From Bacillota bacterium (GTDB taxonomy: Bacteria; Bacillota; Clostridia; Ch29), in NCBI GenBank assembly GCA_013540605.1, contig JABVCK010000002.1:32339-96338 (forward strand): a stretch of DNA of 64,000 nucleotides, given 5' to 3'. Below are positions 1 through 36,487 of this stretch, piece after piece. The notes under the pieces were generated by a model. It was given only the letters and a program-made list of their open reading frames with translations, was not told where the DNA came from and did no database searches. Numbering within the stretch: position 1 is the stretch's first letter; each line of letters opens with the position of its first letter. The translations under genes and the position numbers were made by a program.

Positions 1-254
1 AGCATCAAGGCGGCAGTAAAGGGGGGAAAGAGCATAATAATACAGACAGATATCGCAAAGACAACCGAAACGGTTACCTGGTTCGGCAAAGCGATACTAA
101 GCGATTCACCGACTATAGCCAGTGTGATAAAAAATATAATTTTCCATATGTCCTTGTCGGCCTGCCAGGTATCTGAGAAAAATACGCCGCAAGCTATTGC
201 CAGCAAAACCGTTATAGCTATTATAAGCTTCACTCTAACAGGAAGTCTGTCCAT
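1..254 (-). CDS. Hypothetical polytopic membrane protein, 5-prime part only (gene runs off window start)
   Basis: Minus-strand ORF starting ATG at 252-254 (MDRLPVRVKLIIAITVLLAIACGVFFSD...), strongly hydrophobic, no stop before window edge. Confidence 0.4.
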   Translation of the reverse strand, partial: MDRLPVRVKLIIAITVLLAIACGVFFSDTWQADKDIWKIIFFITLAIVGESLSIALPNQVTVSVVFAISVCIIMLFPPFTAALM

Positions 255-477
255 ACCCCATTCTCCTTAGGCTTATATAACTCAAATCCAGGCCGGCCCA
301 TAAAACTTAGTGCCAGTTGTGGGCTGCTCCGCCTGCAAGCACCAGAGCCATTAAAGACATAAGAGCCGCTATTACTCTTGCCATGGATATAGCCTCCTTT
401 TCTGCTTCCTCTGCTCTTTCCGCTAATATCAACAGGCTATACCTCTCCGCTAAAATCATGCCGGCCTGAATATTGAA

Positions 478-1122
478 TTATCTGCTCATCAGTTTGGTAA
501 TCCTGCGGTTTACGGCATCCAGAGTTGCTTTGACTATTGCCTCCTTGGTATCTCCCGCAACCACCGAGGAACCAACCAGCATCTGTTCACCGTTCCTGTC
601 AATATATGTAATGGCAACATTGACAACATTACTGCTCGCCATCTTCAGTTCCCTGATATCTTCAACGATAAAGGCCTCTCCGAAGTTCATGAACTCGGAC
701 ACCGCCTGCAAGGCAGACTGCGCCACTATCCTGCCGACGTTCCGGGACGTATTTATACCCTTGCAGCTGCCCGTATAATCCTTGTCCCTGTGAGAAAGCG
801 TCACCTTTACCTCCAGGTCGAGGCCTTTGCTCACCTGTTCCATCGATTTAAACACAAGGCGCAGCTCCTTGGGCAGGGCATTGTCGCAGTTCAGCTGTGC
901 AATGCTTATTATCCTGTGGTCAATGTCTATGCCGAATTTGGCCATGACCGCAGACTGGATATCTCTTACGATTTGTTTGGCGTTTCTTGACTTGTCGGCA
1001 AGGGCGTGGATTTCAATGGCATTACCGTTTCCGTCAAGCTTAACTTTAGAAGAAACAATCCCCTCCACATCGTTTATCAGTTCCTGGAGAATTGTTTCAG
1101 ACACTACAAATTTCTCATCCAT
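478..1122 (-). CDS. Hypothetical protein (weak resemblance to Asp23/Gls24-type stress proteins)
   Basis: 214-aa ORF with coherent coding composition; motif VVSETILQELINDVEGI reminiscent of Asp23 family; no firm family assignment possible by eye. Confidence 0.5.
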   Translation of the reverse strand: MDEKFVVSETILQELINDVEGIVSSKVKLDGNGNAIEIHALADKSRNAKQIVRDIQSAVMAKFGIDIDHRIISIAQLNCDNALPKELRLVFKSMEQVSKGLDLEVKVTLSHRDKDYTGSCKGINTSRNVGRIVAQSALQAVSEFMNFGEAFIVEDIRELKMASSNVVNVAITYIDRNGEQMLVGSSVVAGDTKEAIVKATLDAVNRRITKLMSR

Positions 1123-1243: not shown

Positions 1244-1768
1244 TTAAAACTCCGGTTCAATCAAACCGTAATTTCCATCTTTCCTTTTATAAATCACGTT
1301 TACTTCTTCGGTATCCCCGTTCGAAAACACGAAGAAATTGTGTCCAAGGAGCTCCATTTGCAGTATCGCTTCTTCTACAGGCATGGGCTTCATCGCAAAT
1401 CTCTTGGTCTTAACGACCCTTGGTTTCTCATCGTCATTTTCAGTAGATACAATATTCTCAAAAATCAATTTACTTCCACGGAACCTCTTTTCCAGCTTGG
1501 TCTTATGCTTGTTGATCTGGCGCTCCAGTTTGTCGACGGCCTTGTCAATGGATGTGTACATGTCGTCTGTGCATTCTTCACACCGCAGTACCGCACCGTC
1601 AAAGGGAATGGTGATTTCTATGATGTGCCGGTTCTTCTCCACATTTAGGGTTACCTGGGCTTCGGTATCCTTTTGAAACAGCTTGCTCAGTTTGCCCAAT
1701 TTTCTTTCCACCGTGTCCCTCAACGCGTCGGTAACCTCCATGTTTTTCCCGCTCGTAATGATACGCAT
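1244..1768 (-). CDS. hpf: Ribosome hibernation promoting factor, long form (HPF/RaiA/YvyD)
   Basis: 174 aa; N-terminal MxITGKNMEVTDALRDxVEKKLxKL signature of S30AE/sigma-54 modulation family plus C-terminal dimerisation domain; same genomic position as yvyD next to flagellar cluster in Bacillus. Confidence 0.9.
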   Translation of the reverse strand: MRIITSGKNMEVTDALRDTVERKLGKLSKLFQKDTEAQVTLNVEKNRHIIEITIPFDGAVLRCEECTDDMYTSIDKAVDKLERQINKHKTKLEKRFRGSKLIFENIVSTENDDEKPRVVKTKRFAMKPMPVEEAILQMELLGHNFFVFSNGDTEEVNVIYKRKDGNYGLIEPEF

Positions 1769-2149
1769 AAAATCCAGCTCCTTTCGATTTTCAATGTGCG
1801 TTCAAAGCCACTTACAATCCCGTAGTCTACGTTTGGTTTATTTAATTATACGATAGATTTATATATATTATAATCTATTATTTTATTAATATCCTAAAAA
1901 AGGCTTCCTAAACACAGCCAAAGGGTAATGCATTCCATATGTTTCCATGTTAAAGTTAACTTATTTGTGCAATAATAATATTCACATGTGGACATATTAT
2001 ATGTGCATAATGTGGATAACTCTGTTAGTAACTCCTGCTTCTGTGCTGGTTATGTGGAGAATATGCCACAAACCTGTGGATAACCCTTTGCCGAATTGTA
2101 ATCATTATCATTACTTTAATGTCGGCTTTAACTGAAAAAATGTATAATT

Positions 2150-2440
2150 TGTAGAAAACAGAAACTTCAGGCATCCACCTGAAGCTTCAGAGACTGCATA
2201 AAGTTATCCGGCTGACCTGGTCTTTTCCCCCACACTCGCCTGCTGCGGGTCTCGCTACGGTTTAAGCCTTCACTACTCCCCGTCTCCGGTTTAACCCCGG
2301 GCAGGACTTACCTCTAAACCGCACCATGCTCACCGGTATTTTTGCCGGTTTACGTGGGTCGTTTCGCCTGCGGCTGGCATCGACTTTCAACCACAGACCC
2401 GGAAAAACTTCATTATTCACATATACATTATAGCGTTTTT
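2150..2440 (-). ncRNA. Candidate structured ncRNA, proposed raiA-motif RNA
   Basis: GC-rich (about 60 percent) ~290-nt island inside an AT-rich intergenic region, no ORF, same strand and immediately upstream of hpf/raiA; ends in hairpin CTTCAGGTGGATGCCTGAAG plus U-run on minus strand (2149-2183). Confidence 0.45.
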
Positions 2441-2461
2441 ACGGATATTTCTCAAACCTAA

Positions 2462-12545: not shown

Positions 12546-13289
12546 TTAAAGATTAATTCCTGAAGCAAGTGTAAGTACATATACCTTGTCGCAGCCCGCA
12601 TTCTTCAAAACCCTTGCGCATTGGTTTGTTGTAGTTCCCGTAGTATATATATCGTCAACCAGCAGGACATTCTTAATGCCCCTGATGAGATTGGCATCCT
12701 TTATCTCAAAGGCCCCTTCAAGACACTCCATACGCTGCAGCCGGGTCAAGCCGCTGAGTGGAGGTGTGTTTGTTTTCCTCACAAGGGCGTCTACCTGCTT
12801 TATTTTGAGCTCACGGGCAAGGATCCTTCCCAGTAAATGGGCCTGATTATATCCCCTTTGCCTTTGTTTCTTCACATGGAGCGGTATGGGGACTACTGCC
12901 CGGATGGTGCTGTGGTCTTCCAACTCCTTAAGCCTTGCAGCCATCATACGGGCAAAGGGCCTGGCCATGTAGGGTTTGTTGCCGTATTTAAAGGCATAAA
13001 TCCATTCCTTAACCTTCCCATCATAGAGACAGAGCGAAATGGCCCTGTCAAAGGAATATGGAAAACTGCGGCAGCCGCTGCACAATTCTCCCGTCTCCAG
13101 CAGCTTTCCGCAGCGCATGCAGCTCTTATCACCAATGAAGGCTATCTTTCCCATACAGTCGCTGCAGACGCCGAAGCGATCCGCGCCTGCTATTTTCTCT
13201 CCGCAAAAGTAGCAGTTGATACCGTCGGGATAGAGAAGGTCCAAAAAATCCTCCCAAAAATTGACCATGATGGAATTCATACGACCCAC
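12546..13289 (-). CDS. comFC: ComF family protein (ComFC-like phosphoribosyltransferase with double zinc ribbon)
   Basis: 247 aa; N-terminal CxxC…CxxC pairs and C-terminal PRTase motif VLLVDDIYTTGTT. Confidence 0.85.
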   Translation of the reverse strand: MGRMNSIMVNFWEDFLDLLYPDGINCYFCGEKIAGADRFGVCSDCMGKIAFIGDKSCMRCGKLLETGELCSGCRSFPYSFDRAISLCLYDGKVKEWIYAFKYGNKPYMARPFARMMAARLKELEDHSTIRAVVPIPLHVKKQRQRGYNQAHLLGRILARELKIKQVDALVRKTNTPPLSGLTRLQRMECLEGAFEIKDANLIRGIKNVLLVDDIYTTGTTTNQCARVLKNAGCDKVYVLTLASGINL

Positions 13290-15553: not shown

Positions 15554-16126
15554 TCATAATTTTTTCCTTATTTCCTTGAGTTCATTTAGTATCAGGGCTA
15601 TATCCCCCTTGGTCGCCGGATAGCTGAGGTATCCCCGTAAAGGGCCTGCATCTTCTTCCTTATCTTTCATCATTTTCTGGTGAATAAAGTAGCAGTTGCG
15701 TATATGCTGGTTGATATTCTTTATGCTGTGGTAGCACAGGATTGAACGGTCGTTTTTCAGCGTCAGCCTTGTACCGTCATTATCTCCGTCAACATCCTTG
15801 ATGGCGAAAAAATTGATGTAACCCCGTGAAGCGTCATTTCTTGATACTGTTTTGCGTACCTTAACCGGTAAAAGGATGGTCCGCTGATTAATCGCAACCG
15901 GCACTGCCCTGCTGCACCCCAGCATCTCTCCGTACTTCTTGCGCGCAGCCTGTAAATCGACGGTATGGTCCCTTGCCAGCCGCTTCAGTACAGTTGCTAT
16001 TGTCCTTGGTATCACAATAGGTTCTTCTTCGAGAAAAACAACTTCCGTCGCGTTCCCGTACTGCTTATGATAACAGGGAACAAGGGCCGCTATGTTTTTG
16101 CCGTCAAGTTTTTTTGTTTCGCTCAA
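15554..16126 (-). CDS. ComK-like competence transcription factor (tentative)
   Basis: 190 aa; spacing/pattern similarity to ComK central region (…RAVPVAINQRTILLPVKV…GYINFFAI…); adjacent to comF genes. Confidence 0.4.
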   Translation of the reverse strand: MSETKKLDGKNIAALVPCYHKQYGNATEVVFLEEEPIVIPRTIATVLKRLARDHTVDLQAARKKYGEMLGCSRAVPVAINQRTILLPVKVRKTVSRNDASRGYINFFAIKDVDGDNDGTRLTLKNDRSILCYHSIKNINQHIRNCYFIHQKMMKDKEEDAGPLRGYLSYPATKGDIALILNELKEIRKKL

Positions 16127-34304: not shown

Positions 34305-34465
34305 GCGAAACAGCAAAAAACCCCTTTCTGCAGGAAAGGAGGCAGCTTCACCACCTTATCTTACAGAATTATCAATTCTGTGGGAATTGGCACCGCTGCG
34401 CAAACTCGCCGGTTGCCGGGTTTCATAGGGCCCTTCTCCCTCCACCTCTCTTGATAAGGATTGTA
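34305..34465 (-). promoter_or_regulatory. SAM-I (S-box) riboswitch with intrinsic terminator, leader of metK
   Basis: Minus-strand sequence CTTATCAAGAGAGGTGGAGGGA…GGGCCCTATGAAACCCGGCAACC…GGTGCCAATTCC…AGATAAG matches S-box consensus; followed by hairpin CCTTTCCTGCAGAAAGG GG and U-run. Confidence 0.9.
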
Positions 34466-35115: not shown

Positions 35116-35200
35116 TGGTGGAGGGAGCTGGATTTGAACCAGCGAAGGCTGAGCCAACAGATTTACAGTCTGCCCCCTTTGGCCACTTGGGTATCCCTCC
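35116..35200 (-). tRNA. tRNA-Tyr (GTA)
   Basis: GGAGGGATACCCAAGTGGCCAAAGGGGCAGACTGTAAATCTG…long variable arm…GGTTCAAATCCAGCTCCCTCCACCA; encoded CCA. Confidence 0.85.
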
Positions 35201-35316
35201 ATAATGGTGCCGGCGATGTTATAAACCGCATAGATAATATAACATTTGCCCCGCACTCCTGTCAACACATATATTCAGAAAATTTACTGCCAGTATGACC
35301 ATATTTTTATACAGGC

Positions 35317-36042
35317 CTATTTAAAGATTCTGCCAAGCTCCGCGGATAGCCCTTCAAAAATGTAAGATTGCACGACTTCGGATTTTCTGTAAGTGGTATA
35401 ACCGCTGATGTTCTTGTCTTCAAAAAGGTAAACGGTAACTTCCCTGTTTATGGGGTTCACAATCCAGTATTCCCTGACATCGCACGACATGTAAAGATCA
35501 AGCTTTTTTATCAGATCCTTGCTCCGCGTACCCTCGGATAATATTTCCACCACAAGCGCCGGGACACCCTTGTAATAGTCGTTTTCATCCAGCTTTTCCT
35601 CGAGGTCGCATATGACCATGATATCAGGCTGAACAACATTTATATCCTCCGGGTCTCTCCTGAGCGTGATATCATAGGGAGCAACCATGGGAGTGCACTT
35701 TTTCCCCTGAAACCAGTTGTAAAAAATACCAAAGAGTTCGGTCAAAGCTACCTGGTGCGCGGTTTTAGGCGAGGCCAGCAGGTATATTTCACCGTCAATG
35801 TATTCGTATCTTTCCTCGGAATTTTTGGTCAGTTCCAGAAATTCCTCATAGGATGCCCTTCTGCCGCCCAAACCGTATTCTTGCGCCTTTTCCATCACCC
35901 TACCCTGGCCTGACGCCGCATCTCTTATGGCTGTCAATCTTGCTATTTCCATACCGTTTCTTGTAATTATAATATCTTCATACGCCGCAAGCACGAGGTA
36001 CTTTCCGAAGTTGTTCTGCAGTTCCGTTGAGTTGACTTTCAT
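35317..36042 (-). CDS. Uma2-family (DUF820) putative endonuclease with N-terminal Phd/YefM-like extension
   Basis: 241 aa; C-terminal Uma2 motifs (…PDIMVICDLE…VPALVVEILSEGTRSKDLIKKLDLY…); N-terminal MKVNSTELQNNFGKYLVLAAYEDIIITRNGMEIARL resembles antitoxin fold. Confidence 0.6.
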   Translation of the reverse strand: MKVNSTELQNNFGKYLVLAAYEDIIITRNGMEIARLTAIRDAASGQGRVMEKAQEYGLGGRRASYEEFLELTKNSEERYEYIDGEIYLLASPKTAHQVALTELFGIFYNWFQGKKCTPMVAPYDITLRRDPEDINVVQPDIMVICDLEEKLDENDYYKGVPALVVEILSEGTRSKDLIKKLDLYMSCDVREYWIVNPINREVTVYLFEDKNISGYTTYRKSEVVQSYIFEGLSAELGRIFK

Positions 36043-36166
36043 AAACAGAACCTCCTTTAGCTATTATAGCTATATTAGCTATAATAATTATATGCCGCGG
36101 AAAAGGCGGTGTCAAGAAGCAGTCGATAAAAAATACGACAGGGGAAGTTCTCTCCTGTCGCATTTA

Positions 36167-36242
36167 TGGAGCTGGTGATGGGAGTCGAACCCGCAACCTG
36201 CTGATTACAAATCAGCTGCTCTGCCAATTGAGCTACACCAGC
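36167..36242 (-). tRNA. tRNA-Thr (TGT)
   Basis: GCTGGTGTAGCTCAATTGGCAGAGCAGCTGATTTGTAATCAGCAGGTTGCGGGTTCGACTCCCATCACCAGCTCCA. Confidence 0.85.
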
Positions 36243-36245
36243 ATA

Positions 36246-36321
36246 TGGTGGGCACAACTGGGCTCGAACCAGTGACCCCCTGCGTGTGGAGCAGGTGCTC
36301 TCCCAGCTGAGCTATGCGCCC
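36246..36321 (-). tRNA. tRNA-Val (CAC), with unusual C at position 33
   Basis: GGGCGCATAGCTCAGCTGGGAGAGCACCTGCTCCACACGCAGGGGGTCACTGGTTCGAGCCCAGTTGTGCCCACCA; cloverleaf folds, anticodon loop TCCACAC. Confidence 0.65.
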
Positions 36322-36329
36322 AATAATAA

Positions 36330-36404
36330 TGGTGACCCCTAGGGGACTCGAACCCCTGTTACCGCCGTGAAAGGGCGGTGTCTTAACCGCTTGACCAAGG
36401 GGCC
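36330..36404 (-). tRNA. tRNA-Glu (TTC)
   Basis: GGCCCCTTGGTCAAGCGGTTAAGACACCGCCCTTTCACGGCGGTAACAGGGGTTCGAGTCCCCTAGGGGTCACCA. Confidence 0.85.
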
Positions 36405-36410
36405 AGATTA

Positions 36411-36487
36411 TGGTCGGGGCGAAGGGATTTGAACCCCCGACCCCATGGTCCCAAACCATGTGCGCTACCAAACTGCGCTACGCCCCG
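36411..36487 (-). tRNA. tRNA-Pro (TGG)
   Basis: CGGGGCGTAGCGCAGTTTGGTAGCGCACATGGTTTGGGACCATGGGGTCGGGGGTTCAAATCCCTTCGCCCCGACCA. Confidence 0.85.

Follow-up and report, generated by a model that had tools for sequence, protein, structure and literature searches.

The raiA-motif RNAs, known as ModT in Clostridioides difficile, occur in Bacillota or Actinomycetota, where they typically lie downstream of comFC (74% of genomes) and upstream of raiA/hpf (66%) (PMC10861870); the gene just upstream of them is usually on the same strand and flagellar genes are often found there (Weinberg 2017). In the species studied the RNA is abundant and stable, and its deletion in Clostridium acetobutylicum or C. 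difficile results in less sporulation and aggregation or in a delayed entry into stationary phase, the deletions in both Clostridia being complemented in trans (PMC10861870, PMC11706538). In C. difficile the sporulation defect runs via raised cyclic di-GMP (c-di-GMP) (PMC11706538), and orthologues from other families complement the deletion. Here we analysed a stretch of 64,000 nucleotides from an uncultured Clostridia lineage near Lutisporaceae (GenBank assembly GCA_013540605.1, contig JABVCK010000002.1, positions 32,339 to 96,338; hereafter the window), in which positions 2455-2150 of the minus strand form, with very high confidence as to both identity and gene structure, a raiA-motif RNA gene located upstream of the ribosome hibernation gene hpf.

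An earlier sequence-only reading of this stretch had proposed a probable raiA-motif RNA and had named a search with the Rfam raiA covariance model as its check. This search was run over the whole 64-kb window and the proposal is borne out: the model, RF03072, matches positions 2203-2407 (-) end to end, with 183.8 bits against a gathering score of 101.3 and an E value of 7.5e-47, the match covering model positions 1-209 of 209 without truncation. The same reading had considered that a hit to 6S, signal recognition particle (SRP) RNA or another family would speak against it. A permissive Rfam scan of 1700-2520 at E <= 1 returned raiA only and no other family, and no Rfam match to 6S, SRP, tmRNA or RNase P was found at the locus, be it at the gathering score or at E <= 1. 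Hence, the element is an ordinary and complete copy of a family that is already described, curated and structurally solved, and it adds little that is new; since a standard Rfam model detects it and the family has been described and solved, the locus counts as already known and its novelty is low.

The raiA RNA is base-for-base the same on a contig of the NCBI metagenome-assembled genome (MAG) GCA_030017455.1, and a Logan assembly contig, SRR6186653, carries 200 nt of it that are also identical to the window. Furthermore, the Hpf protein encoded on both of these contigs is exactly that of the window. As the same RNA and the same Hpf are recovered in two independent assemblies, we are dealing with the real sequence of a real organism. 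Its closest species-representative genomes are uncultured Clostridia MAGs with 83-87% Hpf identity, none exceeding 87% and several bearing isolate names typical of anaerobic digesters; among cultured relatives the search places Lutispora thermophila nearest, with 69% Hpf identity. Of the 18 closest loci, 15 have raiA upstream of hpf according to Rfam, with scores of 176-192 bits, and an nhmmer sequence profile built from alignment A1 detects the RNA in 38 of 83 loci. Hand-made regular expressions recovered the core in 17 loci only, missing the linker of the closest relatives because its positions 5-7 vary; the Rfam model and the nhmmer profile were used instead. Two loci, L011 (78% Hpf identity) and L025 (Lutispora saccharofermentans), keep the DnaA-box cluster described below and show no raiA RNA with the profile in the 5 kb upstream of hpf, L011 being negative with Rfam too; the raiA gene of these organisms may lie elsewhere in the genome or may have been lost.

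For the secondary and tertiary structure, the architecture obtained by He et al. (PMC12968392) from four structures by cryo-electron microscopy (cryo-EM) was written onto the window sequence, and pairs were counted on a MAFFT alignment of the window RNA and 15 relatives. This alignment of 16 sequences, to which the pairing and invariance results below refer, was not fitted to the structure. Standard pairs make up 96.4% of the cells compared to 28-45% when the 3' partners are slid by one to three columns, the structure being derived from the window sequence, which alone favours the unslid register. Two-sided changes are seen in 19 pairs and the observed covariation score was reached by none of 500 shuffles; compensatory changes occur in P1a, P3a, PK1, P5, P6, P7 and P8a. 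In the window every pair forms in P1a, P1b and P1c, P3a and P3b, P4 to P8 and PK1, except two at the open end of P1a. The core as a whole (2203-2407 (-), 205 nt) has P8 with its E-loop and lacks P2, which places it in the C. acetobutylicum subtype.

Within P1, both P1b (CUG/CAG) and P1c (UGGU/ACCA) are invariant, as are the two bulges of the arm, namely GU at the P1a/P1b junction on the 5' strand (2397-2398), a conserved feature according to PMC12968392, and GGU on the 3' strand (2215-2217); P1a covaries. The turn from P1c to P3a contains the GAAA (2385-2388; RNA positions 20-23, G20 A21 A22 A23) of a GAA(A) tetraloop-like motif, which is invariant in the relatives and for which a contact in three dimensions is predicted. 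It is followed by the P3a-P3b hairpin (2358-2384), in which P3a (GUCG/CGAC, the first pair being G-C or A-U) and P3b (GCC/GGC) are both 100% paired on either side of an asymmetric A-rich internal loop (AU / GAAA). The apical loop of this hairpin makes PK1: its GCCGCA (5' arm, 2369-2374) pairs with UGCGGU (3' arm, 2318-2323), located between P5 and P6, and these 6 bp are 100% paired, one of them switching between A-U and G-C and another between U-G and C-G. From PK1 to P6 runs a 10-nt single-stranded linker, UUAGAGGUAA (2308-2317), proposed as the docking site of KhpA/KhpB (PMC12968392), of which UUAG and UAA are invariant and positions 5-7 variable, reading AGG in the window. P4, P5 and P6 have 5 bp each and P7 has 4 bp; P8a, P8b and P8c all form, and the P8 arm (2250-2278), with E-loop strands GAGUA (2278-2274) and GAGA (2253-2250), is 100% paired in P8a and P8b. 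The multi-stem form with P6, P7 and P8 is the one found in 68% of family members. Finally, an 8-nt linker, GGGAAAAG (2222-2229), leads from P4 to P1c and provides the 3' strand of PK2; it has an A at 2226 in place of the usual C, a deviation that is weighed below.

P1 extends beyond the Rfam model. Indeed, the 5' flank GAA (of ..GAAG; 2408-2410) pairs with the 3' flank UUU (2200-2202), as G.U, A-U and A-U in the window, and these flanks covary in the relatives (alignment A2) as GAAG/CUUC, AAAG/CUUU and GAAA/UUUC. It follows that P1 is 3-4 pairs longer in this clade than in the model and that these bases have to be part of the transcript; judging from ModT(S) of C. difficile (PMC11706538), the 3' end of a short isoform would lie around 2200-2202. 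A minimum free energy (MFE) fold of the whole transcript as a single sequence (z = -2.6) was set aside, as it does not reproduce the native fold, the pseudoknots being unable to form in this method, and it served only to spot the P1 extension. A small protein-coding gene was rejected as well. The sequence-only reading had seen no open reading frame (ORF) in the segment, which holds in substance: one mechanical 52-aa ORF with a GTG start exists (2262-2420 (-)), and it is ruled out by stops in all eight closest relatives. The frame is interrupted within 9 codons in seven of the eight and within about 30 in L010 and L012, several relatives have no start codon, and the substitutions in this region track helix pairing and not coding.

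The RNA is preceded by a near-consensus promoter of the sigma-A type, TTGAGA-17-TATAAT (11 of 12 matches), whose -35 (2450-2455 (-)) begins 7 nt past the stop codon of a flgN/fliT-like ORF and whose -10 (2427-2432 (-)) predicts a start at about 2420-2422. All 15 relatives likewise have a TATAAT-type -10 box, in many cases TGnTATAAT, located 9-20 nt ahead of the model start within surroundings that are not conserved. Downstream of the core, a 12-bp intrinsic terminator hairpin, GAAGCUUCAGGU-GGAU-GCCUGAAGUUUC (2161-2188 (-); -17.9 kcal/mol, z = -2.97 versus shuffles), is followed by UGUUUUCU, and the U-run UGUUUUCUACA (2150-2160 (-)) is the predicted end of a long isoform. A separate terminator hairpin is found in the window, L008 and L010. 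In L004, L005, L007 and L009 a U-run stands directly 3' of P1, so that P1 may itself be the terminator stem in these loci. With a start at about 2420, two RNAs are predicted, one of ~ 218 nt ending after P1 and one of ~ 270 nt keeping the terminator hairpin. A one-mismatch DnaA box on the opposite strand, TTATTCACA at 2413-2421 (+), overlaps the predicted start; given that the leader is shorter and the box not conserved in the relatives, it is probably due to chance.

These results allow the gene outline given by the sequence-only reading to be adjusted. The GC-rich island that it had described is real: 100-nt windows from 2150 to 2400 have 52-58% GC, compared to 23-33% for the spacer that flanks them. 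The figure of about 60% that it had given is slightly high, the match itself having 57%. Its limits of 2150-2440 do enclose the RNA core, but the promoter (2455-2427) runs about 15 nt past 2440. A discrete transcript is predicted as it had supposed, of ~ 218 and ~ 270 nt and not of 200-250 nt, and the hairpin that it had called a clean terminator is present on the minus strand at 2188-2161, the word clean being generous for a U-run that is interrupted. Its view of an independently transcribed RNA in the neighbourhood of hpf is consistent with the sequence and with the relatives. However, the RNA had been placed immediately upstream of hpf; strand and order are right, but between the last position of the RNA model and the hpf ATG there is a 434-nt spacer with conserved regulatory blocks of its own.

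The gene that follows the RNA on the same strand is hpf (ORF 1244-1768 (-)); it encodes a long-form ribosome hibernation factor, with Pfam Ribosomal_S30AE and S30AE_C domains and an NCBIfam TIGR00741 match above cut-off. The spacer between the RNA and hpf aligns well among the closest relatives and displays, from 5' to 3', a distal block containing TTGACA, five to six DnaA boxes and a promoter block. The latter is found about 100 nt before the ATG and reads TTGGAT-18-TATAAT in the relatives with an invariant -10; in the window the promoter-like block, recognised from the alignment of the closest relatives, is TAGGAT (1896-1891), an 18-nt spacer and TATAAT (1872-1867), on the minus strand and 300 nt past the raiA gene. 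A consensus promoter scan missed it because of its weak -35 hexamer. The distal block (2090-2131 (-)), conserved as GTTAAAGTTGACATTAAAGTAATGATAATGA...ATTCGACA and reading TTAAAGCCGACATTAAAG... in the window, stands just 5' of the DnaA boxes and contains two T(T/C)GACATT(A/G)A(A)G-like words about 34 nt apart; it may serve either as a distal promoter, its TTGACA then having an over-long spacer, or as the binding site of a regulator. In Lutispora-type loci the gap between RNA and hpf widens to 0.8-1 kb and contains an extra ORF for a 93-aa four-cysteine zinc-ribbon protein (4068-4349 in L016, Lutispora thermophila; same region in L013-L021). A conserved and apparently structured sequence, which has no Rfam match, lies right after the raiA RNA in these loci.

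The array of DnaA boxes occupies 1987-2083 (-), between the raiA terminator and the hpf promoter, and consists of TTATCCACA twice, TTCTCCACA, TTATGCACA and a weaker ATGTCCACA. Four boxes with at most one mismatch to TTATCCACA are found at 2002-2083, all in the orientation of hpf, and the fifth, at 1987-1995, has two mismatches. Elsewhere in the 64-kb window there is never more than one DnaA box per 120 nt, and in 300 block shuffles a count of four was never reached. When the 600 nt preceding hpf were scanned in 80 species-level loci, a cluster of three or more boxes in 120 nt turned up in 60 of them, and in 55 the cluster had four or more; of 155 other segments, which add up to 629 kb, a single one contained such a cluster. 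Box orientation equals that of hpf for 233 of 284 boxes. Furthermore, the cluster keeps a distance of about 200-480 nt upstream of hpf, be the RNA at 0.4 or at 1 kb, and loci of Tissierellaceae/Tissierellales, Gudongella, Soehngenia and Brassicibacter that lack a raiA RNA within 5 kb have the cluster too. The idea that the boxes form part of the RNA gene is ruled out by this constant distance and by their presence in loci without raiA; for the same two reasons, the array belongs to hpf and not to the RNA.

A literature search of incomplete coverage found no report of a link between DnaA and hpf or yvyD. Judged from sequence, hpf may be controlled by DnaA, or the array may titrate DnaA, and we give about an even chance to the proposal that DnaA targets hpf widely across Clostridia and Tissierellia, a role not described before; this claim is independent of the RNA. 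A broader proposal takes the raiA gene, the DnaA array and hpf to be a single growth-arrest module. In such a module, DnaA bound to the array (1987-2083) would report the replication status and set hpf transcription, and it might also influence the read-through of raiA's leaky terminator, which would tie the RNA to the decision between replication and ribosome hibernation. To a functional coupling of this kind involving the RNA we attribute only a slight chance, and the narrower claim about hpf and DnaA is rated much more likely.

As to what the RNA does, the sequence-only reading had called the function of the family still unknown. This stands for the molecular job, but knock-out phenotypes in two Clostridia and binding to KhpA/KhpB in vitro have now been published. 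RNA-bait pull-downs enriched KhpA and KhpB, as cited in PMC12968392, and the KhpA-KhpB complex binds four different raiA RNAs in vitro with a dissociation constant (Kd) of ~ 2 uM (PMC12968392). In Grad-seq the raiA RNA sediments with protein-sized complexes, and P1 was singled out as likely functional by the cryo-EM authors (PMC12968392). By analogy with the studied species, the window RNA would be abundant, stable and trans-acting, and not a leader of hpf; it would fold into a rigid pyramid with P3, P4, PK1 and PK2 as its core and would offer as binding surfaces the long P1 arm, the E-loop and the exposed UUAGnnGUAA strand. The same role is expected here since these conserved surfaces, P1 arm, E-loop and exposed linker, are intact. 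The RNA would thus help to set when growth gives way to stationary phase (sporulation, aggregation), as it does in C. difficile via c-di-GMP levels. It might do so as the core of a ribonucleoprotein that binds or titrates proteins such as KhpA-KhpB, and for this preferred mechanism, as opposed to base-pairing with mRNAs or metabolite sensing in cis, we hold the chances to be evenly balanced.

Several points weigh against the reading of the locus as an intact raiA gene whose RNA works in trans as a ribonucleoprotein core. The outer pairs U1-C205 and U4-U202 of P1a are unformed, leaving 7 of 9 pairs; in PK2, for which the family has two Watson-Crick pairs joining the P5-P6 strand to the 8-nt linker, U82-A183 forms and G83 faces A182 (window 2226), with no compensating change in G83; the U-run of the terminator is interrupted; and for the window RNA, start site, 3' ends and abundance are predictions. 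The Rfam type label for RF03072 is 'Cis-reg; riboswitch'. As for the mechanism, ModT was not recovered when KhpB was pulled down in C. difficile (PMC11706538), the binding of KhpA-KhpB is only micromolar and possibly non-specific (PMC12968392), and the RNA may have a ribozyme or ligand-sensing role instead. The PK2 mismatch could signify a decaying or non-functional raiA copy that has lost a G-C pair, given that C occupies this position in 31 of 35 species-level copies. Yet L013, L018 and L037, three other species, independently carry this A (4 of 35 copies, counting the window), all other conserved nucleotides and helices as well as promoter and terminator are intact, and 183.8 bits falls in the middle of the range of the relatives. 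The linker itself, GGGAAAAG in the window against GGUCAAAG in close relatives, has kept its 8-nt length and its flanking G and A residues. A sequencing error is ruled out, as two independent assemblies agree on the variant. Of the four layers that PK2 stacks in the solved structures, two are already non-canonical G.A pairs (PMC12968392), so that a third one may be tolerated. PK2 is, as far as the sequence can tell, the sole deviation from the published architecture, with one defining tertiary contact predicted to be weakened, and decay is hardly credible. The label in Rfam leads to another possibility, in which the element would be a cis-regulatory leader or riboswitch of hpf, a ligand deciding on read-through of the 2188-2161 hairpin. 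The element does lie upstream of hpf on the same strand with a terminator after its structured domain, and a ligand-induced conformational change was left possible by the C. difficile authors (PMC11706538). However, the hpf ATG is 434 nt downstream behind its own conserved promoter, with the DnaA-box array in between, and in Lutispora-type loci the gap reaches about 1 kb and holds an additional gene of 93 aa. Moreover, the terminator hairpin stands apart from P1 and has no alternative pairing with the core, several relatives have a bare U-run after P1 in place of the hairpin, the published deletions were complemented in trans and no small-molecule binding was found in vitro. A leader is therefore rejected on the spacing, on hpf's own promoter and on the trans complementation, its probability being very remote; for these reasons, with the gap being wide and variable, the Rfam label is out of date for the raiA family.

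Two further alternatives leave the identity of the RNA untouched. It could be the processed 3' end of the late flagellar operon (fliD-fliS-flgN-like), the 2188-2161 hairpin being the operon terminator, as the RNA follows the stop codon of the flgN/fliT-like ORF (2462) after just 54 nt, a minus-strand terminator was not found in this interval, and same-strand and often flagellar genes are usual upstream of the family (Weinberg 2017). Against this, the promoter with 11 of 12 matches lies inside that same 54-nt gap, all relatives keep a -10 box ahead of the RNA within surroundings that are not conserved, and the family adjoins many different upstream genes, comFC in 74%. We see only a small chance for processing from the operon as the source of the RNA, but the two routes are compatible and read-through from fliS could add to promoter-driven synthesis. 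The other alternative concerns mechanism: instead of being a protein-binding scaffold, the RNA would act as a ribozyme or would sense in trans a ligand such as c-di-GMP or a growth-phase metabolite. Its large, rigid and pseudoknotted core with about 50 near-invariant nucleotides is typical of catalytic or ligand-binding RNAs, both ideas were raised by the Breaker and Faber groups (PMC10861870, PMC11706538), the in vivo dimethyl sulfate (DMS) reactivity varies with growth phase (PMC11706538), and an HD-GYP-type protein is encoded three genes downstream in the window's organism. However, no cleavage or ligand has been reported and early in vitro tests gave no small-molecule binding, the fold is unlike that of known c-di-GMP riboswitches (PMC12968392), Grad-seq places the RNA in a protein-sized complex, and the HD-GYP neighbour is a single observation. 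Catalysis or ligand sensing thus appears unlikely, though not to the degree of the other alternatives, and the ribonucleoprotein core is retained as the working mechanism.

In the wider neighbourhood, the order of genes on the minus strand is recD2, a ComF-family gene (12546-13289), yvyF, flgN, flgK, flgL, a DUF6470 gene, the flagellin gene, flaG, fliD, fliS, the FlgN/FliT-like gene (2462-2944), the raiA RNA, hpf, a gene for a 214-aa protein and the start of a gene for a MASE9/HD-GYP protein. The comFC ... RNA ... hpf setting of the family is therefore present here with a late flagellar block inserted, about 10 kb of such genes separating the comFC-type gene from the raiA RNA. In Bacillus subtilis the comF-yvyF-flgM ... 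fliD-fliS-fliT-yvyD region has the same order and is not known to contain the RNA. The 214-aa protein encoded directly downstream of hpf (478-1122 (-)) has no Pfam or NCBIfam match; a 50-aa ORF (307-459 (-)) follows it, and gene calling reports both of them on each of the three contigs from this organism. The MASE9/HD-GYP (HD_5) protein begins three genes downstream of the RNA (1-254 (-)) and runs off the left edge of the window, being whole in L002 (2149-3423); HD-GYP domains act as phosphodiesterases of c-di-GMP. In two close relatives, L006 (5664-5983) and L005 (5664-5714), hpf is directly followed by a group II intron (D1-D4 domains), which is absent from the window. Upstream of recD2/comFC, a 190-aa ORF (15554-16126 (-)) gives a sub-threshold ComK match (E ~1e-3, 19.4 bits against a cut-off of 22.3) and may encode a competence regulator beside the comF gene. 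A S-adenosylmethionine (SAM) riboswitch (S box, 90.8 bits; 34353-34460 (-)) and five tRNA genes (35119-36487 (-)) are ordinary and unrelated to the locus.

The raiA finding in itself matters little beyond the fact that the locus can be annotated as a raiA/ModT gene. It has a modest value as a data point, the biochemical function of raiA RNA being still open: the window provides a natural allele with a weakened PK2 pair, a ready-made test of that contact, it predicts the architecture of long and short isoforms outside the pathogens studied so far, and the covariation within its clade indicates a P1 longer than in the current model. The DnaA array before a ribosome hibernation gene may matter more since, if DnaA binds there, replication control would be linked to ribosome hibernation.

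Compared to the known systems, the window RNA is closest to that of C. acetobutylicum, solved by cryo-EM (RF03072: Weinberg 2017, Soares 2024), with which it shares the same set of helices, without P2 and with P8, and nearly the same length (205 nt against 204 nt). Also in common are PK1, the GU and GGU bulges, the GAAA at 20-23, a linker of the UUAGAxGUAA type and the setting with hpf and comFC. It differs in the second pair of PK2, which is G.A instead of the G-C of the family, in positions 5-7 of the linker, AGG here and variable in the clade compared to UUAGA(C/A)GUAA in three solved RNAs (PMC12968392), and in P1, to which its clade adds 3-4 covarying pairs. Its terminator is a separate hairpin, whereas the C. 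acetobutylicum gene was reported without one (PMC11706538). In this respect C. difficile ModT (Lence 2024) is nearer: it likewise has a single promoter of the sigma-A type directly upstream, a core closed by P1 and a hairpin terminator a few tens of nt further on, and its isoforms of 215 and 260 nt, of which the long one is more stable (PMC11706538), correspond to the ~ 218 and ~ 270 nt predicted here from sequence. Both RNAs have a GC content well above that of the surrounding DNA. However, ModT was studied as a transcript, whereas the window's RNA is predicted from the sequence of an uncultured digester-type Clostridia lineage. Outside the family, raiA RNA resembles 6S and other abundant housekeeping non-coding RNAs whose work consists in binding proteins, in being independently transcribed, very abundant, stable, linked to growth phase and trans-acting, a comparison of working mode and not of membership. 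Indeed, 6S is an open-promoter mimic with a long interrupted helix and has no similarity of sequence or structure to raiA, which is a compact pseudoknotted pyramid. With riboswitches, raiA RNA has in common a highly conserved, pseudoknotted and aptamer-like fold 5' of a gene on the same strand; unlike them, it has no coupled expression platform, its ORF lies hundreds of nt away behind a promoter of its own, and it is complemented in trans.

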